64,000 bases of DNA. Origin: Hyphomicrobium sp. (GTDB lineage Bacteria; Pseudomonadota; Alphaproteobacteria; Rhizobiales; Hyphomicrobiaceae). The stretch is taken from contig JADJVG010000008.1 of the NCBI GenBank assembly GCA_016716675.1, positions 123,134-187,133 of the forward strand, read 5' to 3'. The translations under genes and the position numbers were made by a program. Below the pieces are notes generated by a model. The model was not told where the DNA came from, made no database searches, and saw nothing but the letters and a program-made list of their open reading frames with translations. Positions within the stretch are counted from its first letter, which is position 1; each line of letters starts with the position of its first letter. This document shows, one piece after another, positions 28,394-61,969 of the stretch.

Positions 28394-28486
28394 GGAGACG
28401 TGGCCGAGTGGCTGAAGGCAACGGTTTGCTAAATCGTCATACGCTCTAAAAGCGTATCGAGGGTTCGAATCCCTCCGTCTCCGCCA
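28394..28486 (+). tRNA. tRNA-Ser(GCT)
   Basis: GGAGACG/CGTCTCC acceptor stem, TGGCCGAGTGGCTGAAGGCA D-arm, GCT anticodon, long variable arm, GGTTCGAATCC T-arm, encoded CCA. Confidence 0.97.
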
Positions 28487-37438: not shown

Positions 37439-39883
37439 ATGATTTTGTGTGGGCGGGGCGCAGGTAGCTGTGCGGATCAATCAACTCTGCCGCCGGCGCA
37501 GCCGAAAACATGGCGCGGCCTTGGTGCCGCCATATCGTCGGCGACGGTTGTGTCCGCCCTGGCGCTGCTGACGCCATCGAGCGCCTGGGCTGCCTGCACG
37601 TCGCCGAATACGACGTCCTGCACTGTTGATACTACGTTCAACAACAATGGGGTTTTCGACAACGGCGATGCCTTTAACCCGGGCACTGTCGCTATCCAGA
37701 GCGGCGGCGTGTTCAACAACGCCATCGGCAGCGGAACCTTCTATAATAGCGGCACCGTCACCATCCAGGGTGGCGGCGTATTTAATAATTCCAGCTCCTA
37801 TTGGAATAGCAACTATCGTAGCGGAACCGTCACCATCCTGGATGGTGGCACGTTCAACAACATTACCGAATTCATAAATGGCGGCGATATCGACGAAACC
37901 GGTGTCGTCACCATCCAGGATGGTGGCCTATTCAACAACGACGGTAATTTCTATAATGGCGGTGTCTATTATGGTAGCACTGGCATCGTCACCATCCAGA
38001 GCGGCGGCGTGTTTAACAGCGATGGCAATTTCTATAATGGCTCTTCCGGTGTTGGCTCATTTTATCATTTTTTTCACAGCACCTTCACTGGAAGTGTCAC
38101 GATCGAGAGCGACGCGGCATTCAACAACAACGGTGCTTTCTATAACGGCGGCACCAATGGCATAGGCACCGTCACCGTCCAAGATGGCGGCGTGTTCAAC
38201 AACGATGGCCAATTCGTGAATGGCCATCTCTCTGGTTATTTTTTCAACAGTAACACTCCCGGCACCGGCATCGTCTCGATTATGAGCGGCGGCACGTTCA
38301 ACAACAACGGTGCTTTCTATAATGGCGGTAACGGCAGCATCGGCACCGTTTCGATCGCGGACGGTGGCCTGTTCAATCACTTCGCCGGAAACAGCATTGG
38401 CAACGATAATGTCGCCAACGCAGTCACCTTCGCCAACAGCGGCACTTTCAATATCGGCTATGGCAATCCGGCGCTGGCAACCACCAACTACACCGGCACA
38501 TACACGCAATCGGCAACAGGCGCTCTGGCATTGCGCGCCGATTGGGCGGGCAATACGTCGGATAAGCTCGCCATCACCGGCACGGCAACGTTGGCGGGCA
38601 CTATCGTCGTTACGCCGCTGAATTTCCCCTCGACCGGCGGTCTCACCAAGACGTTCGCGGGCATCGTCACCGCAACGAACCCCATCATTGACAATGGCAT
38701 CGGCGTCACCGACACGGCGGCCGTCGATTATGAGCTTTTGAAGTCGGCCAACCAGATCGACCTCGTTGCCACCATCAACTTCCAGGGTATTGAAACGGGC
38801 GGGCTAACGCCGAACCAGAACAATGTCGGTGGGGCGGTTAACGGCATTTTTAACGGCGGCACATCGCTCGGCTTCATGCCTCCGCTGTTGACGCTTGCGT
38901 CCAACGGGGAACTGGGCGGGGCGCTCGACCAGCTGGCGCCGTCCGGCGCGGGCGCGGGCAACATTTCGACGCTGCAGGGAATAGGGCCATTCACCGGCCA
39001 ACTGCTGTCGTGCCGCACGCTCGGCGAGGGCGACGCTAACGCCATCATCCACGAGGGCCAGTGCGTGTGGGCGCGCGGCACCGTTCGCCAAGCCTCCATC
39101 GACAACGGCGGCCTCAGCTATGGCGCAGACGAAACCGCGCCGCTCTATTCTGCAGGCGCACAGCTCGACATCGGCGGCCCGTGGCGCCTCGGCGGCGGCA
39201 TCGGTTATGAAACGTCGCGGCTTGATTCCGACGCCGGCAGCCACACCGAAACGGACCGCCTGCATCTGGGTGCGGTGCTGAAATACAATCCCGGCCCGCT
39301 GCTGCTTGCAGCGACTGTCACCGGCGGCTTTGGCTGGTCGGACAGCGTGCGCAACGTCAACTTCGGCGGCTTCGCGGCCACCGCCACGTCCGATTACGAC
39401 TCCGACTACATCTCCGGCCGCTTCACGGCAGCTTATCTCGTGCCGTTCGGCGGGCTCTACTTGAAACCGCAGGTGGACTTTGGCTACGCCCACATCTCAC
39501 GCGATGGCTATCGCGAGCAAGGCACCGGCGGCATCGCGCTTGCCGTTGCCGGCAGCAATGACGGTGTGTGGTCGGCATCACCGATGCTTGAGATCGGCAC
39601 CGAGGTTGCTCTGGCCGGTGGCGGCGTGGCTCGTCCGTTCGTCAGAGGCGGCCTGACATGGCGCGACCAGGACGGCTTCATAACGAACGCCACGTTCCTG
39701 GATGCGCCAGGCTCGGCGGCGTTCTCTGTGACGAGCGAGATCGACAACGTGACTGCGGATATCGCGGCAGGTCTGGATCTCATCACGCCCTCCGACACGG
39801 CGCTGCGCCTGCAGTACGATGGCCAGTTCGGCGACACGATCGACCAGCACATCGGCTCGGCAAAGCTCAGCCTCAAGTATTGA
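37439..39883 (+). CDS. Autotransporter with Asn/Gly-rich beta-helix repeat passenger
   Basis: Signal-like AISSATVVSALALLTPSSAWA, about 9 GTVTIxxGGxFNN repeats, C-terminal barrel ending KLSLKY; start uncertain. Confidence 0.88.
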   Translation: MILCGRGAGSCADQSTLPPAQPKTWRGLGAAISSATVVSALALLTPSSAWAACTSPNTTSCTVDTTFNNNGVFDNGDAFNPGTVAIQSGGVFNNAIGSGTFYNSGTVTIQGGGVFNNSSSYWNSNYRSGTVTILDGGTFNNITEFINGGDIDETGVVTIQDGGLFNNDGNFYNGGVYYGSTGIVTIQSGGVFNSDGNFYNGSSGVGSFYHFFHSTFTGSVTIESDAAFNNNGAFYNGGTNGIGTVTVQDGGVFNNDGQFVNGHLSGYFFNSNTPGTGIVSIMSGGTFNNNGAFYNGGNGSIGTVSIADGGLFNHFAGNSIGNDNVANAVTFANSGTFNIGYGNPALATTNYTGTYTQSATGALALRADWAGNTSDKLAITGTATLAGTIVVTPLNFPSTGGLTKTFAGIVTATNPIIDNGIGVTDTAAVDYELLKSANQIDLVATINFQGIETGGLTPNQNNVGGAVNGIFNGGTSLGFMPPLLTLASNGELGGALDQLAPSGAGAGNISTLQGIGPFTGQLLSCRTLGEGDANAIIHEGQCVWARGTVRQASIDNGGLSYGADETAPLYSAGAQLDIGGPWRLGGGIGYETSRLDSDAGSHTETDRLHLGAVLKYNPGPLLLAATVTGGFGWSDSVRNVNFGGFAATATSDYDSDYISGRFTAAYLVPFGGLYLKPQVDFGYAHISRDGYREQGTGGIALAVAGSNDGVWSASPMLEIGTEVALAGGGVARPFVRGGLTWRDQDGFITNATFLDAPGSAAFSVTSEIDNVTADIAAGLDLITPSDTALRLQYDGQFGDTIDQHIGSAKLSLKY

Positions 39884-41091: not shown

Positions 41092-41480
41092 CGACAAGCC
41101 ACTGGGGGATGATGTGTTCGCGATGGGACCCGGCCTCGACACACACGCAAGATCGCTCGCTTTGATGCGCGTCGTGAGTGGCTTCCGCAGTTTGAATCCG
41201 ATATAGATCAGGGAAAGGCATGACGAGGTCCGCTGATGACCAGCGCTGCACCCTTTGATTGGGCGCAACGTACCTAGCCGAGTTCGCTGGGCTACGCTAC
41301 GGCGCGAGTGCAGTGCACGCCTTACTCGACATACATCACCGCGCTTTCCATATTCCGAACTACGTTATGTGCAAGGCGGAGGTATCGATACCACGTAGTC
41401 AAGAGAATGGCTCATTGGTTGCTCTCGCCGATCGCCGCCGATAGACTGTGTTGCTAGCAACAGTCATCCGGGATGTTTCT

Positions 41481-43496
41481 ATGCAAAGCGCCTCCATCAT
41501 TCGCACCACGTGCCCACGCGATTGCTACGATTCCTGCGGTCTTCTGGTGAAGACGTCATCGGCCGGTGAAGTCAGCGTCGTCGGCGATCCCAGTCATGCC
41601 TTGGCGCACGGAGCGCTATGCGGAAAATGTTCGATTGCCTACAACGGCGTTTGGCGCGATGCCAAGGCGCGCCTTTCCACGCCATTGAAGCGCGTTGGAG
41701 CTAAGGGCGAAGGCCGCTTCGAAGCTGTGACATGGGATGAAGCACTGGCCGATATTGCGCAACGGCTCAACACCATCCGCGCCAAGAACGGCGGCGGGTC
41801 AATTTTACAGACGCATTATACCGGCACCTGTTCGCTGCTCGCAGGCGTCGTGCCGATGCGCTTCTTCAACCGCATCGGCGCGACCGAAGTCGATCCCGAT
41901 ACGGTGTGCAACAAGGCCGGCCACGTCGCCTTGCAACTGATGTATGGAGAATCGATGCGTGGGTTCGATACCCGCACCATCGATGGCACTAAATGTTTGA
42001 TGATCTGGGGAGCCAATCCTGCGACCTCTGCGCCGCATGTGGATGAGCACTGGTTGAAGCAGACAAAGGCCCCCATCATTGTCGTCGACCCGATCCGACA
42101 CAAAACGGCCGCCGCCGCCGATATGCACTTGCAGCTCTATCCCGGCACGGATGGCGCGTTGGCGTTCGCGCTGCTCCACGTCATTGCGGCAGCAGGCCGT
42201 ATCGATCGAGCGTTCCTCAAAGCGCATACGCAGGGCTGGGATGAAATCGAACCGCAATTGGCGGCATGCACACCGGCCGTTGGCGAATCCATCACTGGCG
42301 TACCGGCGGCACTGATCGAGAAAGCGGCGCTCGCCTATGCTTCGGGGCCGTCGCTGTTATGGATGGGGCAGGGCTTCCAGCGCCAGACCTATGGCGGCAA
42401 TGCCATGCGCGCGGTCGGCCTGCTTCCGGCGGCGAGCGGCAACATCGGCAAGTATGGCGCCGGCTTCCTTTATCTCAATGGCTGGGATACGCGCGGCGTC
42501 GATGCAGGATATCTCACCGCGAGCCATCTCAATACCGAGCAGTCGCCAGCCGTCAGCCACATGGATTTGGCTGCCCGGTTAGAGCAGCCGGCAACGAAAG
42601 CGCTCGTCACCTGGAACAACAACATTGCCGTTTCCAGCCCCGAGCAGAGGCGGCTGCGGTCGGCGCTGGCACGGGAAGATCTGTTACAGGTTACGCTCGA
42701 GCTGTTTGCAACCGACACGGCCAAATATGCCGATTACGTGCTGCCAGCCGCGAGCTTCCTTGAATTCGATGATGTGGTGATGCCGTATTTCAATTCGTGC
42801 ATATCGGTGCAGGCAGCGGCGATGCCGCCGACGGGCCAGTCGTTGCCCAATCAAGAGATCTTCCGCCGCCTCTCCAAGGCCATGGGCTTAACCGAACCTG
42901 AGCTGTTTGAAAGCGATACCAGCATTATCGCGACGCTGTTGCAGCAGGCAAAGCCCGGGCTTGATTTCGCCACGCTCGCCAAGGCCGGCACGATCTTCTA
43001 TCCCGAGACTCCGGCAGTGCAGTTTGCCGAGCATAATTACAAAACAGCCTCCGGAAAAATAGAACTTGCAGGGCAGAGCTTTGTCGATGTGGGGTTGCCG
43101 CGCGCGCCTTTTGCATCAAGCGAACCGCGGCCTGAGGGGCGTGAACTGCGCATGCTGTCGCCAGCGTCGAAGTGGCTGTTGAATAGCAGCTATGGCAACG
43201 ATCCGAAAATCATCAAACAGCTCGAAGCAGGGGAAGTCTATCTACATCCCGACGAAGCAAAAGCTCGAGGGCTTGCCAGCGGCAGCAAGGTGCGGCTCTC
43301 CAATGCTATAGGTGACATCACCTTGCGCTTGGCGCTGTCTGACGATGTGCCGCGTGGCGTCGTGCTGGCCCACAAGAGCCGCTGGCCGATGCCCGGTGCG
43401 TCGGAAAACATCAACGCCTTGAACCCAGGGACCAAGGCGGATTTGGCGGATAGCTGTGCCGTACACAGCATCAACGTTGCGGTAGCGCCTGCTTAG
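41481..43496 (+). CDS. Molybdopterin-dependent oxidoreductase (DMSO-reductase superfamily, uncharacterised cytoplasmic clade)
   Basis: N-terminal CPRDCYDSCG...LCGKC Fe-S motif, IWGANP, PGTDGALA, DYVLPAASFLE, C-terminal dinucleotide-binding domain; no Tat signal. Confidence 0.9.
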   Translation: MQSASIIRTTCPRDCYDSCGLLVKTSSAGEVSVVGDPSHALAHGALCGKCSIAYNGVWRDAKARLSTPLKRVGAKGEGRFEAVTWDEALADIAQRLNTIRAKNGGGSILQTHYTGTCSLLAGVVPMRFFNRIGATEVDPDTVCNKAGHVALQLMYGESMRGFDTRTIDGTKCLMIWGANPATSAPHVDEHWLKQTKAPIIVVDPIRHKTAAAADMHLQLYPGTDGALAFALLHVIAAAGRIDRAFLKAHTQGWDEIEPQLAACTPAVGESITGVPAALIEKAALAYASGPSLLWMGQGFQRQTYGGNAMRAVGLLPAASGNIGKYGAGFLYLNGWDTRGVDAGYLTASHLNTEQSPAVSHMDLAARLEQPATKALVTWNNNIAVSSPEQRRLRSALAREDLLQVTLELFATDTAKYADYVLPAASFLEFDDVVMPYFNSCISVQAAAMPPTGQSLPNQEIFRRLSKAMGLTEPELFESDTSIIATLLQQAKPGLDFATLAKAGTIFYPETPAVQFAEHNYKTASGKIELAGQSFVDVGLPRAPFASSEPRPEGRELRMLSPASKWLLNSSYGNDPKIIKQLEAGEVYLHPDEAKARGLASGSKVRLSNAIGDITLRLALSDDVPRGVVLAHKSRWPMPGASENINALNPGTKADLADSCAVHSINVAVAPA

Positions 43497-44196: not shown

Positions 44197-44873
44197 TTAG
44201 TTTCTGCTTTGCGTGCCTCTGGACAATGTAAGGTCTTCGAGCGCATCAAAGGCAAAACTAGCAACGGCGTCGCCGTTTTTGTTTCCTAGTTTTCGAAGTA
44301 TCGGAGCGAATGGCATCCGCAGCCGCGCTGCAACAACCGCTGCAAACGCACGATCCATGAAATCCGTGCTATCTGCCCGTTTGCCAATATCATTGTCGTC
44401 CGGACGCTTCAGCTGTCTGACGACCCACTCCAGATTGTCCGAAATCCAACGATGGTGACGGACGTTGCCAGCACTGGCGAGCGACATGGAGTCAATACGT
44501 CTTAGGAGGTTCAGACATTTCCATTGGACGGCGCTTTCACAATCCTGCAGATGTTCAACGCACTGTGCAATGATGACACCGTCGTCGGATGTAGCACTAG
44601 ATATAACACCATCAATTGCATAGAAGCGAACTGCCTTCTCCGGATTATTTAGTAGATGAGCACACTCGCCCAATAGTGGACGTCCTCGCCGGCCAAGCTC
44701 ATAAAGTATCCAAGCACCGCTGATCACAACCTTCGGATCTGTGGATCTCAACAAACTCGTAGGTGGTTTAAGCCAAGGTCCCCATAGAAAGCCTCCAAGA
44801 GGAGGTCAACATCGGTTTCATGCTCCACGCCACGCACCACGCGAACCAGCGCTGATTGTGTGTCAACAGGCAT
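44197..44873 (-). pseudogene. Putative immunity protein (HEAT-like helical), frameshifted near 44753-44755
   Basis: ATG 44873 overlaps the toxin-region stop at 44863; adding one T joins MPVDTQSALV...HLRV to LLRSTDPKVVISGAWILYELG; visibly lower GC. Confidence 0.55.
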
Positions 44874-45364
44874 CGAACGAACTTCCAGATATGAGCTTCT
44901 CGACAGACCCTAACAAGTCCCGCTCTCTTTCGATTTCACTGCGATGGGCCGGACCACTCGGAGTATTCTCCCCCAGCTTTTCCATTCGCGTTCCCGATGG
45001 CGAATGATGTCTCTTAGATTGTCGCGAATCTCTTCGTATGCCTCTTTTGGAAAGTTGAAAGAATGTCTCGGCTTTTATTCGAAGGATGTCACCTGTCTGA
45101 CGGGTTGGGTTCGCAGACAATACGCGATGTTCGCGGCGGATACGATAGTGCGTTCGGTTTGACGCCAGGAGGCGTAAAGAATGACCTCCTGCACGGGCTT
45201 CTGCCCCGGCCGCGGTTCAGCCCGTCTAAATCGGCATCACCTAGAGGATCATTGCCAACATACGCATACAAACTCGGCCCATCGACAAGCCCCAACGGAT
45301 CGGGCTGGAAGTATCGTCCGAGTGATGAATCGTAGTGGCGGTGCCGGTTGTAATGCAGGCCGCT
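44863..45364 (-). pseudogene. Orphan Rhs core plus degraded C-terminal toxin region
   Basis: SGLHYNRHRHYDSSLGRYFQPDPLGLVDGPSLYAYVGNDPLGDADLDGL is the canonical RHS repeat-associated core ending in the DPxGL-type cleavage motif; the downstream region is broken by stops and frameshifts. Confidence 0.8.
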
Positions 45365-45458
45365 CTTTATACGGTGCTTTGGATGCCCAACTGCATCCGC
45401 GCGACGAGCTGGAACCTCTGACCGATAGACCTAAGCGCGCGAGCCGTGCGATTGCAGT

Positions 45459-47834
45459 TTACGCCAATCCGCGCGCCCGTTTCTTTTCCGGGTCGAAGTG
45501 CGGGAGTTTCACAATATGGGCCGGTAACCGTTTCTGTTGGCCGTCGAGCTTGCCGATTTCCACGGCCGTTCCCTCCGCAGCAATTCCGGCATCGACACGG
45601 GCAAGCGCAATGTTCTTATTGAGGAGTGGCGAGCGGGTGCTGCTTGTGACGACGCCCACCTGTGCGCGGCCAATATGAATGTGATCGCCGTGGATCACCG
45701 CTTCATTTGACAAGATGTCGAGGCCTACGAGCTTGTAGCGCGGATGCTGCTGGCGCGCGGTGAGTGCGGCCCGGCCAATGAAGTCCGCTTGCTTGGTCTT
45801 GAGCGGCACGGTGAAGCCGATCCCAGCCTCGAAGGGGTCCGTCTCAGACGAGAAGTCATTGCCGGCAAAAATCAATCCTGCTTCGATCCGCACCATATCC
45901 AGGGCTTCGAGACCCATCGGAGCCAGGCCGTGCTTTTGTCCTGCTTCCCAGACCGCGTCGAACACGGCCAACGCATCCTTCGGATGGCAGAAGATCTCAT
46001 AGCCCAGTTCGCCGGTGTACCCTGTGCGCGATACGACGACCGGCGCGCCGTCAGAATGGTTTATCCTGCCAACACAGAAGCGGAACCACTCGAGTTCGCT
46101 CAGTGTGGGTTGGGTTGGGGATGTCCAGATGATCTCTTTCAGAATGTCGCGTGACTTCGGTCCCTGCACCGCGATGTTGTGCAATTGGTCGGTCGATGAG
46201 CGAACCCAGGCTTCGTAGCCCTTGCGTTGTGCCTGCTCACGCAGCCAAATGCCCGAGTAGTCATCGCCGCCGATCCAACGGAAATTGTTTGGACCGAGCC
46301 TGAAGGCAGTACCGTCATCAAGCATGCCGCCGTTCTCGTAACAGATGGCCGAATAGACGACGCCCCCGGTCGGCAGCTTGGCAATATCACGCGTGAGGCA
46401 ATAGTTGAGCAGTGCTTCGGCGTCGGGACCAGTGACTTCGAATTTTCGAAGCGGCGACAGATCCATCACGACGGCGCGTTCGCGGCAGGCCCAGTATTCG
46501 GCAATCGGGCCTTCGCTTAGAAACTGCTTGGGTAGCCAATAACCGCGATACTCTGTGTAATTACGCGTTAGCGCTGAAAAGCGCGGATGGAAGGCAGTTT
46601 CCTGGGTCATTTGGGGATCGGCGTCCGGTGATTTTCGGTGAGCGATAGCTCTGGCGAATTTCTTTTGCGCGGAATAAGTGCGGATGTGAATGTCCGTCGG
46701 CTCCCAGGCATTGGCCGCATCGATATCGTCGGAACACGACGACGATACGCAGACAAGATCGGTCAGCGCCCGCATGAGCACAAAGTCGCCAGGCCGCGAC
46801 CACGGCTCGTCGAGATACAACTGGTTCAGATGGTCGATGTTGGTGTTATAGAAATAGTTGAGCGCCTCCCAACCCTTGCGAGGTGCGATACCGTAGGGTG
46901 CCAGAGCGGCGTTGAAGTTATCCGTGCAGTTGATATGACCGGGATAGCCCAAGTCGTCGTAATAGCGGCTGTTGCAGGCGGTGGCGAATGCATCGTGGCG
47001 GCCAACCGTGTCTTGCACGATCTCCACCAGCGGCTCGAAGTCACGGTCGAAGGCAATCGATGGCAAGCCGGGTGCCGGGTAACTGCGGCCGAGGAGGGTA
47101 CGCGTGATCGTGGAATCGAGCGCAAGGTCCAGTCCCTTTTCGACTTTTCGCAGAGAAAGCGCTTGGAAGTCCGAACACTGACGGCCTGACACGTCGATAA
47201 CTTGAATATATTCGCCCGCCTTCACCAAATAAGCTGATGCCGTCGCGGCCTTGATGCGGATATCCTGCAGTATATCAGCCAAGGGTTCCGGAAGAACATT
47301 GTCATTCTTTGTTGTGGGTGTTGACCGCGCGATGATCAGCTCAATATCAGTCGCGGTGTTCTGATCCTGAGGTGCCATCGGTGCGCTCGGCGCCGCGACG
47401 AGCAGGAAACCATCCCGCGCTGCGATGAAATTCGCAATTGCGCCTGGGGTGGACGTTAAGCCGAAGAGGCCAATGGATCGGGCGGCCGCGATATTGATGC
47501 CGTGACGCTGCAATTTAGCAAGGCTTCTCGCTGTGCTGTCGTCGATGCCACCAAATGCGAGACGCAACCCATCACCGTTGCCATCAGCGTTCACACCGAG
47601 CGCGCTCATATCTGAGCGGCCATCGCCACTGAAAAAGCAAATCTCGCAGGCTTGCCCGCCTTCAACATCTCGGAAAGCTAGGCGGTCTCCGGCCGCAAGT
47701 CGGACTACGAGCGATCCACCGCCGCGCACGACATGCCGCTGGTGACCACTGGGTAAACTGCGCATTCCGGGACGCAAGATCACACTGGGAAGCACTGCAT
47801 CTGGTTGCGAAGCACCGTTCAAAGAACTCTCCAA
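45459..47834 (-). CDS. tdm: DUF1989 + aminomethyltransferase (GcvT-like) fusion; TMAO demethylase (Tdm)-like
   Basis: DUF1989 domain(s) with SDF, HDAFATAC...YPGHINC, YFYNT and SSSC; THF-binding GcvT domain (DLSPLRKFEVTGPDA, SRTGYTGELGYE, RIEAGL). Confidence 0.75.
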   Translation of the reverse strand: MESSLNGASQPDAVLPSVILRPGMRSLPSGHQRHVVRGGGSLVVRLAAGDRLAFRDVEGGQACEICFFSGDGRSDMSALGVNADGNGDGLRLAFGGIDDSTARSLAKLQRHGINIAAARSIGLFGLTSTPGAIANFIAARDGFLLVAAPSAPMAPQDQNTATDIELIIARSTPTTKNDNVLPEPLADILQDIRIKAATASAYLVKAGEYIQVIDVSGRQCSDFQALSLRKVEKGLDLALDSTITRTLLGRSYPAPGLPSIAFDRDFEPLVEIVQDTVGRHDAFATACNSRYYDDLGYPGHINCTDNFNAALAPYGIAPRKGWEALNYFYNTNIDHLNQLYLDEPWSRPGDFVLMRALTDLVCVSSSCSDDIDAANAWEPTDIHIRTYSAQKKFARAIAHRKSPDADPQMTQETAFHPRFSALTRNYTEYRGYWLPKQFLSEGPIAEYWACRERAVVMDLSPLRKFEVTGPDAEALLNYCLTRDIAKLPTGGVVYSAICYENGGMLDDGTAFRLGPNNFRWIGGDDYSGIWLREQAQRKGYEAWVRSSTDQLHNIAVQGPKSRDILKEIIWTSPTQPTLSELEWFRFCVGRINHSDGAPVVVSRTGYTGELGYEIFCHPKDALAVFDAVWEAGQKHGLAPMGLEALDMVRIEAGLIFAGNDFSSETDPFEAGIGFTVPLKTKQADFIGRAALTARQQHPRYKLVGLDILSNEAVIHGDHIHIGRAQVGVVTSSTRSPLLNKNIALARVDAGIAAEGTAVEIGKLDGQQKRLPAHIVKLPHFDPEKKRARGLA

Positions 47835-48034: not shown

Positions 48035-48232
48035 CTACCGGGCGTTGAGCTCAGATAATACGTGATCGACCAGCATCTCGGCGCGTCCGCTTCCACTCAG
48101 GAGGCAAAGCTCGGGGTTCTCCGACGGCTCGTACGGCGATGTGATACCGGTGAAATTGAGGATTTGGCCAGCGCGCGCCTTTTTGTAGAGCCCTTTAAGG
48201 TCGCGACTTACGCAGAAATCTAACGGCGCATC
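48035..48232 (-). pseudogene. cysC: C-terminal fragment of adenylyl-sulfate kinase (CysC/CysNC)
   Basis: Hand translation DAPLDFCVSRDLKGLYKKARAGQILNFTGITSPYEPSENPEL...; no start codon and no P-loop half. Confidence 0.85.
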
Positions 48233-48311
48233 ACTTAGCTAGGGCCGCATTACATGCTCGCGCCGTCGCTCGATGACGAACTGAACGTCATGGGACGGCG
48301 TCTGCGGCTAT

Positions 48312-51289
48312 TCAGAACTTGACGCCAACCTTGGCGCCGCCGCTGTGTAGGGTGGTGTCGTCGCCGAATTGACCGTCGTACTGCAGACGTACGGTAATGC
48401 CGTTCTGCGAGATGAGGTCGATGCCGGCGCCAACGTCGGCGACGGTCTTATCGACATTGCTGACGAAGGCGAATGCTGGCGTGCCGGCCGGTGCTTCAAG
48501 GAACGACGCCGTCGCCGCGAACGAATCCGTATCGCGGAACGTCGCGCCGCCTTTGACGAAGGCGCGGGTAACAAAACCATCCTCGTAGCGGTGCCCGACT
48601 CCGAGTTCCAACGATGGCGATGCCGATAGCACCGTGTCGGAAGTCTCATCGACATGCAGCGCGATGCCGCCGGTGCCGTACTCGGAATAACCGTCTTGCT
48701 GCAGATGCGTGATGGCCGCTTCGATCTGCGGCCTGAGATAGAACGCCCCCTGGCTCATCAGATACGACGCGGTGAAGCGTCCGCTAACGAAGCTCGAGTC
48801 GTTGCTTGACGTTGCCGACGCAGAAAATCCGTCAAACGCAACATTGCGCTCGTTGTCGTGCCAGCCGAAGCCGCCAGTGACGCTGGCCGCCAACAACCAC
48901 GGCCCCGGATTGTACTTCAGGATGCCGCCGAGATGCAGGCGGTCGCCCTGGGACGCGGCGTTCCTGTTGGTCGCAGAATCGAGCGTCTCGTACCCGATGC
49001 CGCCACCGATGCGCCAGTCCGGCGCGACCATGAACTGGCCACCGGCCGAGACGAATGTTGCGTCTTCGTGGAACCTGTCGCGATTGGTGCCGCCGTCGTC
49101 CTCGTACCGCCGCTGATTGATGCGCGCCCACACGCACTGCCCTTCGCGGATGAATCGCACGCTCTCGCTTTCCTCGCCGACGACGCGGCACGACAGCAAT
49201 TGTTGAGCAAACGTCGTGTTGGAGGTGAGGGCGGTGGATAGTGTGCTACCGGTGCCGAGTGGGGCGAGCTGATTGAGAGCGTTGCCGAGTTCGCCCGACG
49301 TGGAAAGCTGCATCAGCGGCGGCATGAAGCCGAGCATGGTGCCGCCGCCAAAGATCGTGTTGAGGTTGGCGCCTATGGCGTTCTGGTTCGGCGTGAGATT
49401 GTTAACGTTGGTGCCCTGGAAGTTGATCGTCGCCTGCACGTTCATGGTGTTGGCGTCGGGAAACAGCGGGACGTATGTGAGCACCGCGGTGTTGGTGATC
49501 GAGATGCCGTTGTTGGTGATGCCGCCGTCCGCGGTCAAGACCGTGAAGGTCTTTTGTAGCCCGCCCGTTGTCGGAAGCCAGATAGGATCGACTACCAATT
49601 TGCCCGCGAGGCTAGCTGTGCCGGTCACGGCGAGCGTATCGGCTGTGCTGGTACCCCACGCCGCCCGCGTGCGAAGAACACCGCCGGACGTTTGCAGGTA
49701 TTTGCCGGCGAGGTTGACCGTGCCGATTGCGCCTATGCCGCCATTGAGGCGCAGCGTACCGGCATTGTTCAATGTGCCGCTGCCGCCGAGATCGACGGAG
49801 CTGCCGGTGTTGAAGGCTCCGCCCGATTTGTTGTTGAAAGTGGTCGACGACGTACCGGTGAGATCAACGTTGCCGTTGATCGTGCCGGTGTTGGTGACAC
49901 CGACATTGGTGCCGCGCGCATAGAGCGCGTTGCCGGATAGGGCACCGATCGTACCTGCGTTGGTGATTGTCGCAGCCGCGGCCTGTTGGATGTAGACGCC
50001 GTAACCAATTCCCGTGCCGCCCGACACGCTGCCACCGCTGAGGACGTTGATCGCGACGTTGCCGCCCGCGCCATCTATTCCGCTCACAACGCTCAGGTCT
50101 CCGGAGCCGCCGGGGCTGCCGCTTCCTCCGTCGTTGCCGGGCGGATCGCCGCTGCCACCAAGTCCACCGGCTCCTCCGTCGCCTCCACTGCCAGCTATGC
50201 TGCCAGGCGGGCCACCGACGCCGCCAATGCTCGCCGCATAGATGCCGTGCGAGGCGCTACCTGTCGCCGAGACAGTGCCGCTGATATTCACAGTTACAAC
50301 GCCGCCATTGCCCCCGTCGCCGCCAGCACCGCTGTTGGCGCCTTTGCCGCCTTTGCCGCCTTTACCGCCCTTGCCACCTTTGCCGCTGTCGTCTCCTCCG
50401 TCGCCTCCGATCCCCCCCGTTCCACCGTTCCCTCCAGCGCCTCCCGCTCCCCCCGCACCGCCTTGGCTGACGGCGTAGACACCATGTGACCCGATACCAG
50501 CCGTCAGGACGGTTCCAGATTCGTTGACGGTGACCGCTGGGCCCTTACCACCAAGCCCCCATTACCACCGACGCCACCTGGGCCGCCGTTGGTACCGGTG
50601 TCGCCGGGTCGACCGGGAGCACCATCGAATCCGTCACCACCCGTGCCGCCTATTCCGCCTGTTCCTCCCGCACCACCTTCACCACCGATGCCCGTTGTCA
50701 TGACGCCGTATGCGCCATTAACTGCCGTGGAGATCTGCCCGGCGACATTGACGGTCACGGCGCTGGTAGCACCCCCGCCGGTGCCGCCGCTGCCACCGGC
50801 ACCGCCCGCACCGCCCGGATCAAGCGGAGTGCCATCGCCTCCCGTTCCACCCAAACCGCCGTCACCGCCGGTACCCGCCGTTAGTCTCCCAAATGGGCCG
50901 ATGTCATTGGACGTTATGGACGACCCAGTGGGTAACGCGATGCTCAAAAAGCCATCGAGGCCGGAGCCACCGTTTCCGCCTGCACCGCCGGTGCCGCCTG
51001 ACGTGGAGGAGGGTGTCCCAAGTTGTCCGAAGGCTCCCATGCTCAAAACCTGGACGTGCCCCTCAGAACCCGCTATCGCGCCTGTGCATGTGTAGAAGAA
51101 GGTGCCGGGTGCGGGTGAGGCGAGGCTGCATTCCCCTCCGTTCGCGACGCTCTGTGTTGGGGCGAACATTGCGGCGAGGACGATCGTGCTCACGGATGTG
51201 CCAAGCTGATATCGGCGCTTGCGGAGCCCACCGTGGCCGCGCACCATCTCGCATTCAGCGTGACGCGCAGCATTACCTGCCATCGGCAT
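48312..51289 (-). pseudogene. Gly-rich autotransporter split by a single-base frameshift at a G5 run (50556-50560)
   Basis: 5' ORF (signal, GGxGG repeats) joins 3' ORF (barrel ending GAKVGVKF) if one G is added; the restored frame reads GNGGLGGKGPAVTVNESG...SHGVYA and continues without stops into the 659-aa ORF. Confidence 0.85.
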
Positions 51290-52540: not shown

Positions 52541-55500
52541 TTAGTTCAGCGGAACGCGCAGCATCGCGCGGCCCGAGATGGCGTGGTATTCGTCGCTGGT
52601 GCCGACGCCGTCGTAACTGCCGGAGAGATCGAGGGCGATGCCGCTCGGCAAGCCCATTTTCAGACCGAGTTCGACGCGCCCGCGGGCGCCTTCCGGACCG
52701 GCTGCACTGTCATCGATCGCACCCAGTCCCGCAGCCGTCGTATCTCCCGCGAAGTTCCAGATGAGTTCCATGCCGGCACGCGGCTCGATGAACCCACCCT
52801 CGGCGTTGGTGAACGTGTAGCTGATTTCCGGACCAGCCTTCGCTTGGCCAAGAGTGCTGGTCACGCCGGGGATCAGCACGCCGAAGGTGTCATGATAAGC
52901 GTCTGACGCATCCTCGATGTAAGAGATCGACGCCGACGGATTGAAGCTCCACGGACCAAATTTCCAGCGCCCTGAGAGGGTCGATGACGCAAGCCAGCGC
53001 TCACTGTCGAAGTCATCTTCGTAGGTGAGGAACGGCGAGATCGTGTTGCTCGACGTGCCCCAGGCCGCGCGTGACTGCCAGAACACATTCTCCGACAGGC
53101 GAACCGTGGCGTAAGGACCGGCCATCCAGCCGTGGCCGGAGACGTCGGTGCTCAAGCTGTTGGAACGCTGCTCCATGCTGTCGAACTGCACGAACATGCC
53201 GACCAGGAGACTACGGTTCAGCACGTAATCGGCGCCAACCGTGACGAAGCCGAAGTGTCCGTCGAGATCGCTCGATTGCAGCGCGCTATCGTCAAAGCGC
53301 ACGTACTTGCCTTCGATCCAGATGTCGAACGGGTTGAACTGCGGTTGATTGGAGGAAGCAAAGCCCAACGACAAGCCGCCGGTTTTCCGCGCTTCTGCAT
53401 CCGCCGCGAAGCGATAGAAGTCACGCAGGCTGGTTCCGAAGCCAAGGCTCATCGGACCATCGTTGGACGCCGACATGCGCATCGGCAGGGCGAGGCCGGA
53501 GGATGTCTCCATGTCATCGTCCGCCGTGCTGACCGCGATGCCATCGAATGGATTGGATGGGTTGTTGAATGCACCAACACGCCCACCGCTGAAGCCGCGG
53601 CTACGTCCAGCAAAGGCAAACCGGGCCATGTCACCGGCACCCGGTCCGTCGCCCAGGCGCGATTCCGTGACGGCACCCAACGCCGAGCGGCCTGCACCAC
53701 CGGAAAATCCTGATACAAAATTTTCGCTGGTTTCCTCGCCGCCGGGGTTGCCGCCACTTGATTCAATGCTTGTTGCTTCTATGGCTGCATTTGAGATGGT
53801 GTCGGAGCGACCATCGCCACCGGCTTCCATCAGGCGATCAATCTGACGACCTCCGTCTGGACCGTTGCTCAGCATCTGGTTGTTGCGCGCCGACATGAAC
53901 GAGCCGATGGCCTGCGTGGTCTTGGCTGTCTGATCTTCCGTCGCCGTGGTTATGGCCTCGGACGTGGCGGAGGCAAATGTGCCGCCGCCTGAATATCTGG
54001 CTGTCACCACATGCGCGCCGGCGCTGGTGAACGCAGCCGTACACCCTGCAACGCCGCCCGACAGCGGAACCGCTGCGCACAGCGCGTTGCCGTCAGCGGT
54101 GAAGGTCACCGTTCCTGTCGGAACCAGCGCGATCCGCGAAGCAGCCGTGCGAACACTGCGCGTCGGTGGCGCTGCACTGCTCACTGTGGCCGTGTACGCA
54201 ACGGGCTCGCCGATGTGGCTGGACGACTGCGAAGCGGTGATCGTGATCGTTACCGCCGATTGCAGAATGGCGAACGTCTGCGTGACATTCGCGGCAGCAT
54301 TGTAGTTGGCATCACCGGCCTGCGATGCCGTGATCGAGCATGTGCCCGGCGCAACGACGGTCACCGTGTCTCCGTTCGTGCCGCCTGTCGTACACACGCC
54401 TGTCGTCGTCGAGGCGAACGTCACCGGATTGCCGGAAGCGCCGCCGGTTGCTCCGAGCGTGAAAGTGGCACCAAGTCTGAAGATCTGATCCGCGGGCTTG
54501 GCAAAGCTTATCGTCTGCGAGATTTTGCCGATGTTAAACGTTCGCGGCACGTCCGTTGCGGCCGCGTAGTTGGCATCGCCCGCCTGCGAGGCTGTGATCG
54601 AGCATGTGCCCGGCGCCACGAAGGTCACCGTTTCGCCATGGGTGCCGCCTGTCGTACACACGCCCGTCGTTGTCGAGGCGAACGTCACCGGATTGCCGGA
54701 AGCGCCGCCGGTCGCTGACATGGCGAGTGTGCCGCCTGTCGAATAGGTCTGGTCCGCAGGCTGTGTGAATGAGATCGTCTGCGTCGCTAGGCCGACGGTC
54801 ACGTCAACCGTATCGGTTGCCTCCAGGAAATCGGCATCCGCCGCTTTCGTCGCTGTCACCGTGCAGGTGCCGACGCCCGTGCCGGTCAGAGTGGTACCCG
54901 CGATCGAGCAGAACGAACCACCAGCAGTGACAGTGAAGCTCACCGCGCCCGTGCCCGAGCCGCCACTCGTCGAGAGCGCCGACGTCGCGTTGTAGCCGAT
55001 CGACGCTGGCGTGGCCGTGGCGATCAAGGTCGCTTGTGCACCCTGGCCCACGTTCACGGTGTAGGCTCCTGACCTCGTGAACGGCGCGCCTGTGCCGGTC
55101 GAGCCGGTATCGGTGGCTGTGATGGTGAAATTGAATGAGCCTGCCGCCGTTGGCGTTCCCGATACCGTACCGTTGCTCAAGGTCAATCCGGCCGGCAGTG
55201 CACCCGCGGTCACAGCGTAGGTGTACGGACCGGTACCGCCGCTGGCGGTGAAGCTCTGCGAGAATGCCGTGCCACTGGTGGCGGTGAACGTCGGGCCAGC
55301 GGGCGCGAGTGTCAACGTCGGTGCCGCAACCGTCAGCGAGAACGCCTGACCGACGGTGTAGGGGCCGTTGCCGGTGCTGCTGTCGGTTGCGGAGACGTTG
55401 AGAGTGAAGGAACCCGCCTGCGTCGGCGTGCCGGATATGGTGACGGTATTGGCCGTCGTGCCAGTGATCGACAGGCCGGCCGGCAGATTGGTGGCTTGAT

Positions 55501-58237
55501 AGCCGTTCCAGGGCTGCGCGCCGCCGTTGAAGGTGAAGGTCTGGGTGTACGGCGCCGCGACGCTTGAGGCGAAGCCACCAGAGGGCGTGATCGTGATCAC
55601 CGGATCGCTCACGGTAATCGAAACCGTCGCAGCCGCCGAAGTGCCGCTGTCGTTGGTCGCGGTATAAGTGAAACTATCCGGGCCGGCGTAACCGGTTGCC
55701 GGTTGGTAGGTGATCGTTGTGCCGCTGGCGGTTGCCGTGCCATGCGATGCCTGCGTGGCGACGGCAACCGAAGTCGCTGCGCCACCGGAAAGTGACAGAG
55801 GGACATTTGTGGCGGGAGCGTTGTAAGCCACCGTCAATGACGAATTGCCGGCTGTTGGCGGCGCCGCGATGACGGTGATCGAATAAGCTTGTGTCCTTAT
55901 GTAAGGCCCGGTGCCGGTACTGCTGTCGGTCGCTGTGATGGAGAAGTTGAACGTGCCTGCCGCGGCCGGTGTTCCGGTGATGGCACCGGTACTTGTGTTC
56001 AGCGTCAGGCCACTCGGCAGAGCGCCGGCAGTCACGGCGTAGCTGTAGGGTGAAGTGCCGCCCGAAGCGGCCGTGATCGACTCTGAGTAGGCCGAAGCTT
56101 CAGTCCCGCCCGCCAGCGTCTTGTTCGGTAGAACGATCGTCGGCTCCGACACGACCAAGGTATAGGCCCGGCTCCCAGCAAACGGACCCGGGAATGGACT
56201 GCTGTCGGTTGCGGTAACGGTGAAATTAAACGAGCCGCCCGCGGTCGGCGTACCGCTGAGCGCGCCGCTCTGGGCTAATGTCAGACCTGCTGGCAAGGCT
56301 CCCGCAGTGATCGCGAAAGTGTAAGGGCTGACGCCGCCACTGGCGGTGATGGTCTGGCTGTAGGCCACAGCCACCGTCGTATTCGGCAACGTTGCCGGGT
56401 TGACGGTCACGGGGACGTCGTCATTGCTGATCGTGCCCAAACCCTGATTGTCAGAGATTGTGGCGTTGGTCGCGCCGCTGAGGTTTGCGAAGAAGGTCTC
56501 GTTCGCTTCTGGCACGACTTCGCCGACCGCTGGCACGGTTATGGTGTTCGTGGTCTGGCCGGGCGTGAACGTCAGCGTGCCCGACGTGGAGGTGTAATCG
56601 GCCGGCTGCGTCGCGGTGCCGTCGGCCGTCGCGTAATTCACAGAGACGCTCTGGCCGCTGGCGGCGCTGAGGGTCACAGTGAATACCGCGTTCGTTGTGC
56701 CGCTATTGCCTTCGACAACAGTAACGTCGTTGATCGATAGACTGGGCAACGGATCGTCATTTGCGACCGTCCCCACGCCCTGGCCGTCGACAACGACGGC
56801 ATTGACCACATTAGTGACGTTGGCGAAGAAGGTCTCGGTGGGCTCGTTGAGCGTATCGCCGTTGACCAGCACGGTGAAGGTGTAGGTGCTGGAGCCGGCC
56901 GGGATGGTCTGGCCGGTGAGGCTGTTGGCGACGTAATCGACCCCCGCCGTGGCGGTGCCGTTGGCTGTCGTGATGTCGAAGGTGACGCCGCCGGGGCCAG
57001 CCGGAGCGGACAAACTCACGGTGAAGGTGAAATTGGTGATACCGGCGTTGCCTTCACTCGCGGTGACATCATTGATCGTCAAGTTCGGCAGGTCGTCGTT
57101 GAGGATGGTGCCGGTGGCGCTGTTGGGCACGCCGACTGTGTAGCCGGTGCCGGCAGCAAGAGTGAGGGTCACCGTTTCGTCACCCTCGATCGAGGCGTCG
57201 GCCGTCGGGTTGACGGTGATCGTGCCGGTGGTGGCGCCAGCCGCGATGACCAGCGGCGACGCGATCGTCGTGTGGTCGGTACCGTTGGTCGCGGTGCCGC
57301 CCACGGTGTAATTCACCGGCAGGGGAGAGAGTGGAGCTTGGTTGAGAGTGACCGTGTAGATGAGGTTTGTCGCGCCGTCTTCCGCGACGGATGCAGGCGA
57401 GACAGCGATGGTGGCAGTCGGCACGTCGTCATTGAGGATGGTGCCGGTGGCGCTGGTCGGAGACCCGACCGTGTAGCCGGTGCCGGCAGCAACCGTCAGT
57501 GTCACGGTTTCATCAGCTTCAACCGTGCCATCGACGCTCGGATTGATTGGGATAGTGGCGGTGGTGGCGCCAGCCGCGATGGTTACCGTTGCAACGTTGC
57601 CCGTGTAATCGGTGCCGGAGGTCGAAGTGCCCGTGGTGGTGATGTTGACCACCGTCTCCGACGCCAGATTGATGCTGCGGGTTACCGTGTAGGTGAGGTT
57701 GGTTGCACCATCTTCGCTGACACTGGCCGGCGAAACCGCGATGGAGACGGATGGCGTTGCATCAAACCCGCCGCCAGACACGGAGAAAGACGACGCACTG
57801 TCACCGCTCAAGTTGAACGTTATTGCGGATGTCGAAACCGTTTGGCCGTTGTTGTCCGTATAGCTGTAGGTCGCGGTGCAAGTTCCCGTGAAGCACGCTG
57901 CAAAGCCTACGTCAGCAAAGCAATCTCCTGTGCACGATGGAGTATTGGTTGAAGAACTCGAATTTACGTAGTGAGTAAAATCAATTTCCCCTGCAAATGG
58001 TTCAACCTTCAAACCGTTAGCGGGATTTGCGCCATTTAAGGTACAAGCTGGCGTAGCCGCATTGGCTGTAACCCAGATATTCGAACCCATAGCCGGACAA
58101 GACACTGCTGCCGATGCCGCGTGCGGCAGCGCCGTCATCGAAACCACAAGAGCAGCAAAGAGATAAATCCAGCGCGCAACAGCGCCGCCGCGAGCAAGCC
58201 TCGGCCGGTTGCCGTTGCCCCGGACTTTTAAAGACAT
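52541..58237 (-). CDS. Large autotransporter adhesin: Cys-rich tip, 4 Calx-beta, several putative-Ig domains, tandem 88-aa repeats, Ig-like domain, beta-barrel
   Basis: Signal WIYLFAALVVSMTALPHAASA; Calx-beta units ending GTILNDD; GALPAGLTL...GTPT Ig units; barrel ending MLRVPLN. Alternative starts at 58279 and 58345. Confidence 0.9.
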   Translation of the reverse strand: MSLKVRGNGNRPRLARGGAVARWIYLFAALVVSMTALPHAASAAVSCPAMGSNIWVTANAATPACTLNGANPANGLKVEPFAGEIDFTHYVNSSSSTNTPSCTGDCFADVGFAACFTGTCTATYSYTDNNGQTVSTSAITFNLSGDSASSFSVSGGGFDATPSVSIAVSPASVSEDGATNLTYTVTRSINLASETVVNITTTGTSTSGTDYTGNVATVTIAAGATTATIPINPSVDGTVEADETVTLTVAAGTGYTVGSPTSATGTILNDDVPTATIAVSPASVAEDGATNLIYTVTLNQAPLSPLPVNYTVGGTATNGTDHTTIASPLVIAAGATTGTITVNPTADASIEGDETVTLTLAAGTGYTVGVPNSATGTILNDDLPNLTINDVTASEGNAGITNFTFTVSLSAPAGPGGVTFDITTANGTATAGVDYVANSLTGQTIPAGSSTYTFTVLVNGDTLNEPTETFFANVTNVVNAVVVDGQGVGTVANDDPLPSLSINDVTVVEGNSGTTNAVFTVTLSAASGQSVSVNYATADGTATQPADYTSTSGTLTFTPGQTTNTITVPAVGEVVPEANETFFANLSGATNATISDNQGLGTISNDDVPVTVNPATLPNTTVAVAYSQTITASGGVSPYTFAITAGALPAGLTLAQSGALSGTPTAGGSFNFTVTATDSSPFPGPFAGSRAYTLVVSEPTIVLPNKTLAGGTEASAYSESITAASGGTSPYSYAVTAGALPSGLTLNTSTGAITGTPAAAGTFNFSITATDSSTGTGPYIRTQAYSITVIAAPPTAGNSSLTVAYNAPATNVPLSLSGGAATSVAVATQASHGTATASGTTITYQPATGYAGPDSFTYTATNDSGTSAAATVSITVSDPVITITPSGGFASSVAAPYTQTFTFNGGAQPWNGYQATNLPAGLSITGTTANTVTISGTPTQAGSFTLNVSATDSSTGNGPYTVGQAFSLTVAAPTLTLAPAGPTFTATSGTAFSQSFTASGGTGPYTYAVTAGALPAGLTLSNGTVSGTPTAAGSFNFTITATDTGSTGTGAPFTRSGAYTVNVGQGAQATLIATATPASIGYNATSALSTSGGSGTGAVSFTVTAGGSFCSIAGTTLTGTGVGTCTVTATKAADADFLEATDTVDVTVGLATQTISFTQPADQTYSTGGTLAMSATGGASGNPVTFASTTTGVCTTGGTHGETVTFVAPGTCSITASQAGDANYAAATDVPRTFNIGKISQTISFAKPADQIFRLGATFTLGATGGASGNPVTFASTTTGVCTTGGTNGDTVTVVAPGTCSITASQAGDANYNAAANVTQTFAILQSAVTITITASQSSSHIGEPVAYTATVSSAAPPTRSVRTAASRIALVPTGTVTFTADGNALCAAVPLSGGVAGCTAAFTSAGAHVVTARYSGGGTFASATSEAITTATEDQTAKTTQAIGSFMSARNNQMLSNGPDGGRQIDRLMEAGGDGRSDTISNAAIEATSIESSGGNPGGEETSENFVSGFSGGAGRSALGAVTESRLGDGPGAGDMARFAFAGRSRGFSGGRVGAFNNPSNPFDGIAVSTADDDMETSSGLALPMRMSASNDGPMSLGFGTSLRDFYRFAADAEARKTGGLSLGFASSNQPQFNPFDIWIEGKYVRFDDSALQSSDLDGHFGFVTVGADYVLNRSLLVGMFVQFDSMEQRSNSLSTDVSGHGWMAGPYATVRLSENVFWQSRAAWGTSSNTISPFLTYEDDFDSERWLASSTLSGRWKFGPWSFNPSASISYIEDASDAYHDTFGVLIPGVTSTLGQAKAGPEISYTFTNAEGGFIEPRAGMELIWNFAGDTTAAGLGAIDDSAAGPEGARGRVELGLKMGLPSGIALDLSGSYDGVGTSDEYHAISGRAMLRVPLN
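54302..54720 (-). repeat. Near-identical intragenic tandem duplication, 264 bp period
   Basis: GTAGTTGGCATC...GCGAACGTCACCGGATTGCCGGAAGCGCCGCCGG occurs starting at both 54302 and 54566. Confidence 0.9.
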
Positions 58238-58545
58238 CGCCGCCGAGAGGGTCGAGAGCCGCTGTGTTGTAAAAATCATTTTCCAGGTTCCCGCGTCGGC
58301 TGCTTTTCGCTTTTGCCGTGCCACCAAAAATTCAGGCGAACGCACTCAAAGTCTCGCGAACCCAAAGAATGAGCGTAGCCAATCGGCCACGCGTCACAAC
58401 GGGCACGCGAACGCGGAAAAAACGCAGCACATGCGCAGGACTTCAATGTTGTGAGAGGGGTTCAATTCGACAGCGGGCGCCAAAAAAACAAGCGCGCGCA
58501 GTGAAAACGCGATAATGGCCCCCAACGCCCCTGTGGCAACCAATA

Positions 58546-60776: not shown

Positions 60777-60910
60777 CCGATGACCTCACAGGAATGACGA
60801 TCCGGGCAGCAGCCAGTTTGGCCGGCTGCCCGGTTCGATTTTTCCGGCCGGTGCTAAAGCACGTCACGAAAAACCAAATCACGGAAACCAGCTCAATGAT
60901 TGGTGGTTCG

Positions 60911-61918
60911 ATGTCCGAAGCGCAAACTCTCGCAAATCGCACGCATATGAACTGGGGCCCGATCGCCTTGACGGCAATCGGCGCGATCATGGCCGGCCTT
61001 GCCGTCAATTCGGCAATGCAACCCGCCGAGCTCCCCTATCAGAGAACCATCGTCGACGCCGCTCCTGAAACCTACGCGGCGCTTTCGCTGCCGGCTTCAG
61101 ATCCTGCAATGAGCGTGAAGAAGCTTGAGTGGAGCGTGTCGAGCGTTCGCGAACCCATCGCGACCGCAGTGGTTGCAACGGACGCCGACGGACGACACGT
61201 TCCGCTCGACTGGCAGAACAATGTCACCGAGCCGGTGTTTGCTGCGGATCTAAGGATGACCGAAGTCAGCAAAGTGCTGGCAGCCATTCGCGAACATGTT
61301 CCCGAAAATGCTGTCGTCCTCTCATGGTGGGATTTGTCGCGGAAGATCCGTCTGGTGGCGCAGCGTCAGGCACCACTCGACGATCCATATGCTCGTGGAC
61401 TGATATTGCCGACGGCCTGGCAGTCAGCATCAGGTCTGATTGACGAGCAGGAAAACACCTACTGGGGTAAAGGCGTTTCCGAAGCCGATGGCAAAAAATT
61501 CACGCATTACATAGATGCGCTGCTTCTCGATGAGATCAAAGGAGCCGACGCGCTGCGCGCATTGGTTCCTGACGGCAAAGACGTCTACGTGGCGGTTCAT
61601 CTCTCCGACATCTGGAAGGCGGCTGCCAGCCGGCACGATCAGATAGGAATTGCCTATAAGGATATTCCCAGCGGAGGCCAGTCGCATAGCGTCATGAAGG
61701 CGGCGAAGGATTGGATCCGGGAACAGAAGATCGAGGGCGGCTATGCCGTCGAGCCGGTTGGAAATGCTGTCCGGCTGCATTACTTCACGGGCAAGGACAG
61801 CTCCAATCTTCTGCTTGCGAAATTGCTACCGTTCTCGACGTCAAACCCGATGCAACTCGAACGCTTCGAGCTCGTCTATCAGCATCGCGGCTTCTGGGTC
61901 TACAAGCTCAAGGGATAG
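60911..61918 (+). CDS. haoB: HaoB (hao-associated membrane-anchored protein)
   Basis: Directly after haoA; N-terminal TM; LDWQ...EP, VVLSWWDLSRKIRL, LAKLLPFSTSNP, LVYQ..GFWVYKL resemble HaoB as I recall it. Alternative start at 60794. Confidence 0.8.
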   Translation: MSEAQTLANRTHMNWGPIALTAIGAIMAGLAVNSAMQPAELPYQRTIVDAAPETYAALSLPASDPAMSVKKLEWSVSSVREPIATAVVATDADGRHVPLDWQNNVTEPVFAADLRMTEVSKVLAAIREHVPENAVVLSWWDLSRKIRLVAQRQAPLDDPYARGLILPTAWQSASGLIDEQENTYWGKGVSEADGKKFTHYIDALLLDEIKGADALRALVPDGKDVYVAVHLSDIWKAAASRHDQIGIAYKDIPSGGQSHSVMKAAKDWIREQKIEGGYAVEPVGNAVRLHYFTGKDSSNLLLAKLLPFSTSNPMQLERFELVYQHRGFWVYKLKG

Positions 61919-61969
61919 CGGTGGTGATCTGTGGCCAGCTCTCTGCTGGCCACGCCCTCATTTGGTGCC

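Follow-up and report, generated by a model that had tools for sequence, protein, structure and literature searches.

An intact TMAO demethylase gene of foreign origin stands alone in a Hyphomicrobium genome with a TMA dehydrogenase

The Hyphomicrobium genome analysed here carries an intact gene for a TMAO demethylase, tdm, that derives from a lineage outside the genus and stands apart from its usual partner genes, in a host that has its own TMA dehydrogenase (TMADH). We consider it likely that the gene encodes a functional foreign demethylase, a xenolog that was kept as a single gene and that opens external TMAO to the host as a substrate. The window, meaning the whole stretch of DNA that was analysed (64,000 nucleotides), is positions 123134-187133 of contig C8 in a draft host genome (G000) of 3.49 Mb, which comprises 33 contigs and is 93.6% complete with 3.4% estimated contamination. 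The gene and the domains that it encodes are as follows.

Positions 45459-47834, minus strand: longest ORF for tdm, 791 codons from a TTG, with no internal stops.
Positions 45459-47822, minus strand: tdm, TMAO demethylase of 787 aa from the probable TTG start (NF053776, PDB 9q59, ILRPG motif).
Positions 47829-47832, minus strand: probable ribosome-binding site, GGAG, 6 nt 5' of the TTG at 47822 (from the sequence).
Positions 46752-47258, minus strand: DUF1989 catalytic core, aa 193-361, with the predicted zinc site C287/C303/C367 and with D222, H300, Y329, D369 and D370 in or around it (PF09347, E 7e-44).
Positions 45813-46589, minus strand: GcvT folate-binding domain, aa 416-674, with R482, F584 and F674 (PF01571, E 2e-65).
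Positions 45492-45734, minus strand: GcvT C-terminal barrel, aa 701-781, with K784 just past the barrel (PF08669, E 2e-16).

An earlier note on this DNA had proposed a gene resembling those for TMAO demethylases, and this assignment is borne out by profile score, structural match, domain architecture and conserved residues. The product scores 1220.3 bits against NF053776, the NCBIfam equivalog model for TMAO demethylase with a curated cut-off of 1100 bits, and covers positions 6-762 of the 763 in the profile, whereas the five other GcvT-like genes of the host genome reach 107-238 bits. Its alignment with the Paracoccus TDM of the cryo-EM structure 9q59 is collinear from residue 25 to 788 and has no large gaps (1003 bits, E 1.4e-300). 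DUF1989, GCV_T and GCV_T_C domains follow an N-terminal DUF1989-like region within one chain of ~790 aa, which is the architecture of Tdm, and the window protein agrees with 43 other Tdm sequences at all 149 columns in which these are invariant. By all available sequence tests, the ORF is a Tdm.

The residues around the predicted active site point in the same direction. Counting from the Cys of the HDAFATAC motif (C287), the earlier note had placed D, F, H, C, Y and C at given offsets, and each of these is exact in the window protein: D222 (-65), F283 (-4), H300 (+13), C303 (+16), Y329 (+42) and C367 (+80). F259 and Y305 of the Methylocella Tdm presumably share the offsets of F283 and Y329. 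The spacing of D198, C263, H276, C279 and C343 in that enzyme, which the note had listed, is confirmed in the literature (PMC12560246) and is identical to that of the window residues; the Methylocella numbering itself was sought in two sequences (P0133, of 763 aa, and L107) and is exact in neither. In the Methylocella enzyme zinc is bound by C263, C279 and C343, with H276, D198 and D346 also implicated (PMC12560246), and H300 and D370 are the window counterparts of H276 and D346. This enzyme (Msil_3603 of Methylocella silvestris BL2) is the seed of NF053776, and the counterparts of D198, C263, H276, C279, C343 and D346 all lie at identical spacing in the window Tdm. The TDM of Paracoccus sp. 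DMF (PDB 9q59, 9q5a and 9q5l; eLife 2026, PMC13619132) belongs to the same length class and has the same three-part architecture. Its 3Cys-Zn site is C285/C301/C365 (PMC13619132), with which C287/C303/C367 of the window protein align; its substrate or product residues D220, F327 and D367 correspond in the alignment to D222, Y329 and D369, and its folate-site residues R480, F582, F672 and K782 to R482, F584, F674 and K784 (Paracoccus residues from PMC13619132). The two proteins differ at the substrate aromatic site, where Paracoccus has F327 and the window Tdm Y329, and diverge most in the N-terminal DUF1989-like domain.

While the ORF exists intact where the earlier note had placed it (45459-47834), translation probably does not begin at 47834. 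The database gene call opens at the ATG at 47765, which is M24, and gives a product of 768 aa. However, the motif ILRPG(V/I)R, which is kept in the Tdm of relatives, maps 5' of M24, and a GGAG precedes the TTG at 47822 by 6 nt. For these reasons a product of 787 aa is likely, with translation probably starting from the TTG at 47822 and neither from 47834 nor from M24. The Tdm proteins of relatives are 786-789 aa long.

The surroundings of tdm bear on whether the gene is still in use. The features nearest to it are these.

Positions 48312-50291: autotransporter gene.
Positions 48038-48238, minus strand: 3' fragment of cysC (APS kinase), which encodes no more than the final ~63 residues and lies ~200 bp upstream of tdm (NF002059, E 6e-18; PF01583, E 8e-15).
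Positions 45092-45430, minus strand: tail of an Rhs-associated core, starting 28 bp past the tdm stop codon (TIGR03696, 61.2 bits, cut-off 32.5).
Positions 44197-44754, minus strand: 185-aa ORF of low GC (GC 0.51, GC3 0.48), downstream of the Rhs remnant, whose sole match is a sub-threshold HEAT repeat.
Positions 41448-43496: molybdopterin oxidoreductase gene, convergent with tdm.

The Rhs remnant and the cysC fragment that had been noted on either side of tdm are both real by their profile matches. The Rhs tail matches positions 27-76 of 76 in TIGR03696 and ends in a DPLG-type motif and a short C-terminal tip, while the cysC fragment covers positions 108-151 of 152 in the APS_kinase profile; a tblastn search of the host genome gave no second copy of this 67-residue piece. 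The 185-aa ORF may be an orphan immunity-type gene associated with Rhs. Farther neighbours include a GST, a second autotransporter, a Crp/Fnr-type regulator and a 1934-aa adhesin-like protein with Calx-beta/Ig domains, and there is no methylated-amine gene among them. The gene does stand alone, as the note had described it: within 15 kb on either side there is no tmm, permease or dmm gene, unlike in every relative examined. A larger acquired cluster in decay might likewise leave a gene without any of its usual partners. The molybdopterin oxidoreductase was considered as a TMAO-reductase partner and rejected, as it scores far below all cut-offs; nor is it linked to tdm, being convergent, 2 kb away and present as orthologues in other contexts in two relatives. 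We recognised no promoter in the 5' region of tdm, and a search of its vicinity for mobile-element marks (tRNA genes, integrase, transposase or IS genes, att-like repeats of the tRNA-Ser gene, direct or inverted repeats) was negative. Set against five same-genus genomes, the window keeps synteny, with 76-85% DNA identity, from position 1 to the tRNA-Ser gene (28394-28486). Beyond that gene, 30.5-36 kb has its counterpart at another site in those genomes, 36-59 kb is almost without matches, the molybdopterin oxidoreductase in two of the five being the exception, and the counterpart of 59-64 kb is elsewhere again. Thus, tdm sits in a flexible, strain-specific, non-syntenic stretch.

The most closely related loci are arranged differently. 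In loci of the Aestuariivirgaceae/Rhizobiaceae type (for example L008, L010, L014 and the metagenome locus L181), whose Tdm proteins are 73-80% identical to the window Tdm and form the clade in which it nests, tdm has a divergent permease gene on its upstream side and tmm and dmm on its downstream side; L181, the nearest contig with gene context in a metagenome scan, likewise has tmm next to tdm. None of these companions arrived or survived beside the window gene. DNA similarity to thirteen such donor-type loci, at ~76% identity, is confined to 45470-47444, inside the ORF, and a tblastn search of 43.0-49.0 kb with E values up to 1 gave no remnants of the donor permease, tmm or dmm. It is possible that tdm is a silent relic, in the sense that a block of permease, tdm, tmm and dmm was acquired and then deleted down to an intact tdm that is unexpressed or unused. 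Every relative has kept the partner genes and only the window copy is alone; moreover, it lies among gene fragments (cysC and Rhs) in a rearranged, strain-specific stretch, and the failure to find a promoter-like site upstream also fits with silence. However, the gene is free of stops and frameshifts and unchanged at all 149 invariant positions, even though the terminal branch that leads to it from the split with its closest known relative measures 0.31 substitutions per site, and a good GGAG precedes a start that matches the N-termini of relatives. In addition, since the donor flanks are undetectable, a deletion must either be old enough for the flanks to have vanished or never have occurred. 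We regard a silent relic as distinctly unlikely and favour a functional gene that is probably expressed.

What such an enzyme would do depends on the metabolism of the host. The host genome encodes a TMADH of 735 aa (C4:200741-202945) that matches 1djn with 1107 bits over residues 2-734 and whose 90%-identity cluster bears the name Hyphomicrobium in NCBI records. From this sequence evidence, the host is predicted to degrade TMA by way of TMA dehydrogenase. The same locus on contig C4 contains genes for ETF alpha and for an ETF-beta fusion, a tmoP-family permease (867 bits, cut-off 690), dmmA, a reductase, a haem-dependent demethylase alpha-like protein, two GcvT-like proteins and a TMADH paralogue, 54% identical, that is a candidate DMA dehydrogenase. 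A second permease-dmm cluster lies on contig C1, where the sizes of the neighbouring genes and one weak match suggest N-methylglutamate synthase genes. The search of the genome for tmm, TMAO transport and dmm, which the earlier note had named as a check, found tmoP-family permeases and dmm genes on these other contigs and no tmm: the best score against the TMA monooxygenase model NF058570 is at most 37 bits in a genome that is 93.6% complete, and tmm may lie in the missing part. The tmoP-family permeases are not specific for TMAO uptake, since they occur in multiple copies and are also present in Hyphomicrobium genomes that have neither tdm nor tmm.

If the enzyme works like those of Paracoccus and Methylocella, its DUF1989 core would hold a single zinc through C287, C303 and C367. 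The TMAO oxygen would bind to this zinc while D222 and Y329 keep the substrate in position, and TMAO would be split into dimethylamine and formaldehyde without redox chemistry. The formaldehyde would then pass to the C-terminal GcvT-type domain and be bound to tetrahydrofolate, as the Paracoccus enzyme passes the one-carbon unit to tetrahydrofolate (PMC13619132). In the cell, uptake of TMAO through one of the tmoP-family permeases is plausible, though these are not specific, and the dimethylamine could be taken over by the DMA monooxygenase that the host already has, or by the candidate DMA dehydrogenase, and then enter the N-methylglutamate pathway. As the host uses TMADH for TMA and has no TMA monooxygenase, it makes no TMAO by a known route, and therefore Tdm probably serves external TMAO. 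Its likely role, with activity predicted from sequence, is the catabolism of external TMAO to DMA. Conceivably, the enzyme acts instead on a different tertiary amine N-oxide or in internal detoxification, and not in growth on external TMAO. Without Tmm the host has no known internal source of TMAO, and substrate range is not readable from sequence. However, the residues that contact TMAO in the solved complex are all kept (D222, Y329 in place of F327, and D369), the score lies above the equivalog cut-off, and identity to enzymes of the characterised type is high. Such another substrate or role is highly improbable, and we retain the catabolism of external TMAO as the probable physiological use.

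The foreign origin of tdm is evident from its relationships. The closest protein, from a metagenome (P0003), is 80% identical to the window Tdm, followed at 73-75% by proteins of Aestuariivirga, Hyphomicrobiales MAGs, Pararhizobium, Rhizobium and Shinella, whereas identity to the Tdm of its own genus is ~54%. The maximum-likelihood tree, built from 52 Tdm sequences, includes eight same-genus proteins, which form their own clade (SH-aLRT 99), while the window Tdm is sister to P0003 (support 100) inside an Aestuariivirga/MAG clade that is itself sister to a Rhizobiaceae clade. Several members of the donor-type clade reside on Rhizobium plasmids. An AU test rejects a single clade of the window and genus copies, with a log-likelihood difference of 134.6 for groups that were named after the tree had been obtained. 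The gene is only mildly atypical in composition (GC 0.58, GC3 at the 10th percentile of long ORFs), and GC and GC3 are not diagnostic of foreign origin for it. The acquisition that the earlier note had proposed is thus upheld by protein identity, tree placement and the AU test: tdm is a xenolog from the Tdm lineage of Aestuariivirgaceae, Rhizobiaceae and related Hyphomicrobiales, and not a part of the Hyphomicrobium-type cluster.

This cluster is widespread in the genus. Among 64 Hyphomicrobium species representatives, Tdm occurs in 31 others besides the host, always in single copy and 50-55% identical to the window Tdm, and tmm directly adjoins tdm in 32 of the 64. Eleven same-genus loci, taken with ~9 kb of flank on each side, all hold tmoP, tmm and tdm together, nine of them in the order tmoP, dmm reductase, dmm alpha-like, GcvT-like, tmm, tdm. 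In Methylocella, too, tdm is clustered with tmoP, dmm and tmm (PMC5520151). The window tdm, by contrast, is alone. It belongs to the same enzyme family and genus as the tmoP-dmm-tmm-tdm cluster but differs from it in clade and in locus; the host lacks the tmm and tdm of that cluster, and its own tmoP and dmm genes adjoin TMADH. A TMADH that is 90% identical is present in six other species (G020, G022, G029, G036, G061 and G064), none of which has tmm or tdm, and among the genomes searched the orthologous TMADH and Tdm are combined only in the genome of the window. The view that tdm entered a lineage of the TMA dehydrogenase route holds for the host, which has TMADH beside ETF, but not for the genus, which is mixed, with tmm-tdm in 32 of 64 representatives. 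Placing the host with a TMADH-type subclade was also considered and rejected, as its housekeeping DNA identity is 75-80% to both TMADH-type and tmm-type species.

It could be argued that tdm was inherited vertically, from one of two old paralogues in a Hyphomicrobium ancestor that were lost differentially, with the rarer one kept here. With tdm in 32 of the 64 representatives, its distribution in the genus is patchy, so losses do occur. However, the 63 other representatives include none with a tdm of the window type and none with two copies, the window Tdm nests within the clade of other families rather than beside it, a genus clade is rejected by the AU test, and the gene is located in a non-syntenic region, all of which makes vertical descent scarcely credible. 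That a stretch with tdm from another organism was joined into a Hyphomicrobium contig by assembly or binning can practically be dismissed: contamination of the 33-contig draft is estimated at 3.4% and the nearest tdm relatives belong to other families, but the 199.5-kb contig is Hyphomicrobium on both sides (1-28.5, 41.5-43.5 and 59-64 kb match same-genus genomes), the DNA similarity to donor-type loci is confined to the ORF where a chimeric join would have carried donor flanks (tmm and the permease gene), and the best match is just 80% identical and hence no co-assembled neighbour known from the same data. A xenolog kept as a single gene in a Hyphomicrobium genome remains the reading that we prefer.

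Methylated amines and TMAO are of significance as sources of carbon and nitrogen, and TMAO use is usually inferred in gene surveys from clusters of tmm, tdm and transporter genes. The transfer of catabolic genes is common, and the family, chemistry and structure of Tdm are already known. What is new here is a documented stand-alone tdm xenolog and a hybrid gene set of dehydrogenase plus demethylase. Because the enzyme and its chemistry were known, the advance is one of ecological and evolutionary detail and not of mechanism, and the event itself is a fairly ordinary pickup of a catabolic gene from another family. A more speculative scenario concerns oxygen. The known route of TMAO catabolism proceeds via the oxygen-dependent DMA monooxygenase. 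An oxygen-independent Tdm together with TMADH, the candidate DMA dehydrogenase and ETF might instead make up a fully anaerobic route from TMAO to methylamine in a denitrifying methylotroph, a proposal that we put forward tentatively and think unlikely on balance; to our knowledge, no anaerobic TMAO-to-methylamine route of this kind has been described. If it were true, tdm would have been kept alone because it was the only part that the host lacked. The window gene indicates that tdm can move and persist as a single gene and be joined to a dehydrogenase-based pathway without tmm, and counts of tdm and tmm need not describe the same organisms. It is also a clean case from nature of a xenolog acquired in a genus that already possesses the gene in a version of its own. 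Hyphomicrobium now comprises three states side by side: the monooxygenase/demethylase route, the dehydrogenase route and the present hybrid of the two.

Synteny with same-genus genomes extends over a 28-kb block that ends at a tRNA-Ser gene, and past this gene the window is a mosaic whose segments map elsewhere in relatives or nowhere. Neither an integrase nor an att repeat was found. The TMAO demethylase gene (tdm) lies in the mosaic part, and the boundary and other features noted are as follows (window coordinates unless stated):

28394-28486: tRNA-Ser (GCT)
37439-39883, plus strand: autotransporter gene
44197-44754, minus strand: low-GC ORF (GC3 0.48) after the Rhs remnant
45092-45430, minus strand: Rhs core-tail remnant
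48038-48238, minus strand: cysC fragment, 67 residues
48312-50291, minus strand: autotransporter gene
52541-58345, minus strand: gene for a 1934-aa Calx-beta/He_PIG/Ig-domain protein
C2:163869-164018 (another contig of the host genome): second Rhs tail fragment, 69% identical

The two autotransporter genes stand either side of the tdm region, their products being 53% identical in the C-terminal beta-domains, and neither they nor the gene for the 1934-aa protein have a DNA-level counterpart in five same-genus genomes. The low-GC ORF looks like an orphan toxin-tip/immunity-type module, and no ORF of at least 150 aa spans the second Rhs tail fragment. A tblastn search with the 67-residue cysC fragment as query revealed no further APS kinase sequence anywhere else in the host genome, so the fragment may itself be foreign DNA. 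Further along, window 59046-64000 holds a multi-haem cytochrome (hydroxylamine-oxidoreductase-like, PF13447) with adjoining genes.

The public tdm gene call (768 aa from M24; window 45459-47765) is probably truncated at the N-terminus; both the ILRPG motif, which is conserved, and a TTG start preceded by GGAG are found upstream of M24. In-frame TGA codons occur in two same-genus tdm matches (G067:C7:365898-368189 and G007:C14:114301-115257), which may be pseudogenes or sequencing errors.

Among 64 Hyphomicrobium species representatives, tmm-tdm is present in 32 and orthologous trimethylamine dehydrogenase (TMADH) in seven, the two being mutually exclusive with the sole exception of the host genome. 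NF053774, the 'TMAO permease' family, occurs in 45 of the 64, in up to seven copies, including some genomes that lack tdm and tmm alike; the family is probably less specific than this name implies. The host TMADH resides at C4:183001-203000 together with a 54%-identical paralogue that is a candidate DMA dehydrogenase. Also encoded there are ETF-alpha and an Fe-S/ETF-beta fusion, a permease of the tmoP family, a NuoF-like protein, dmm genes and a pair of GcvT-like genes. This locus is a compact dehydrogenase-type methylated-amine island.
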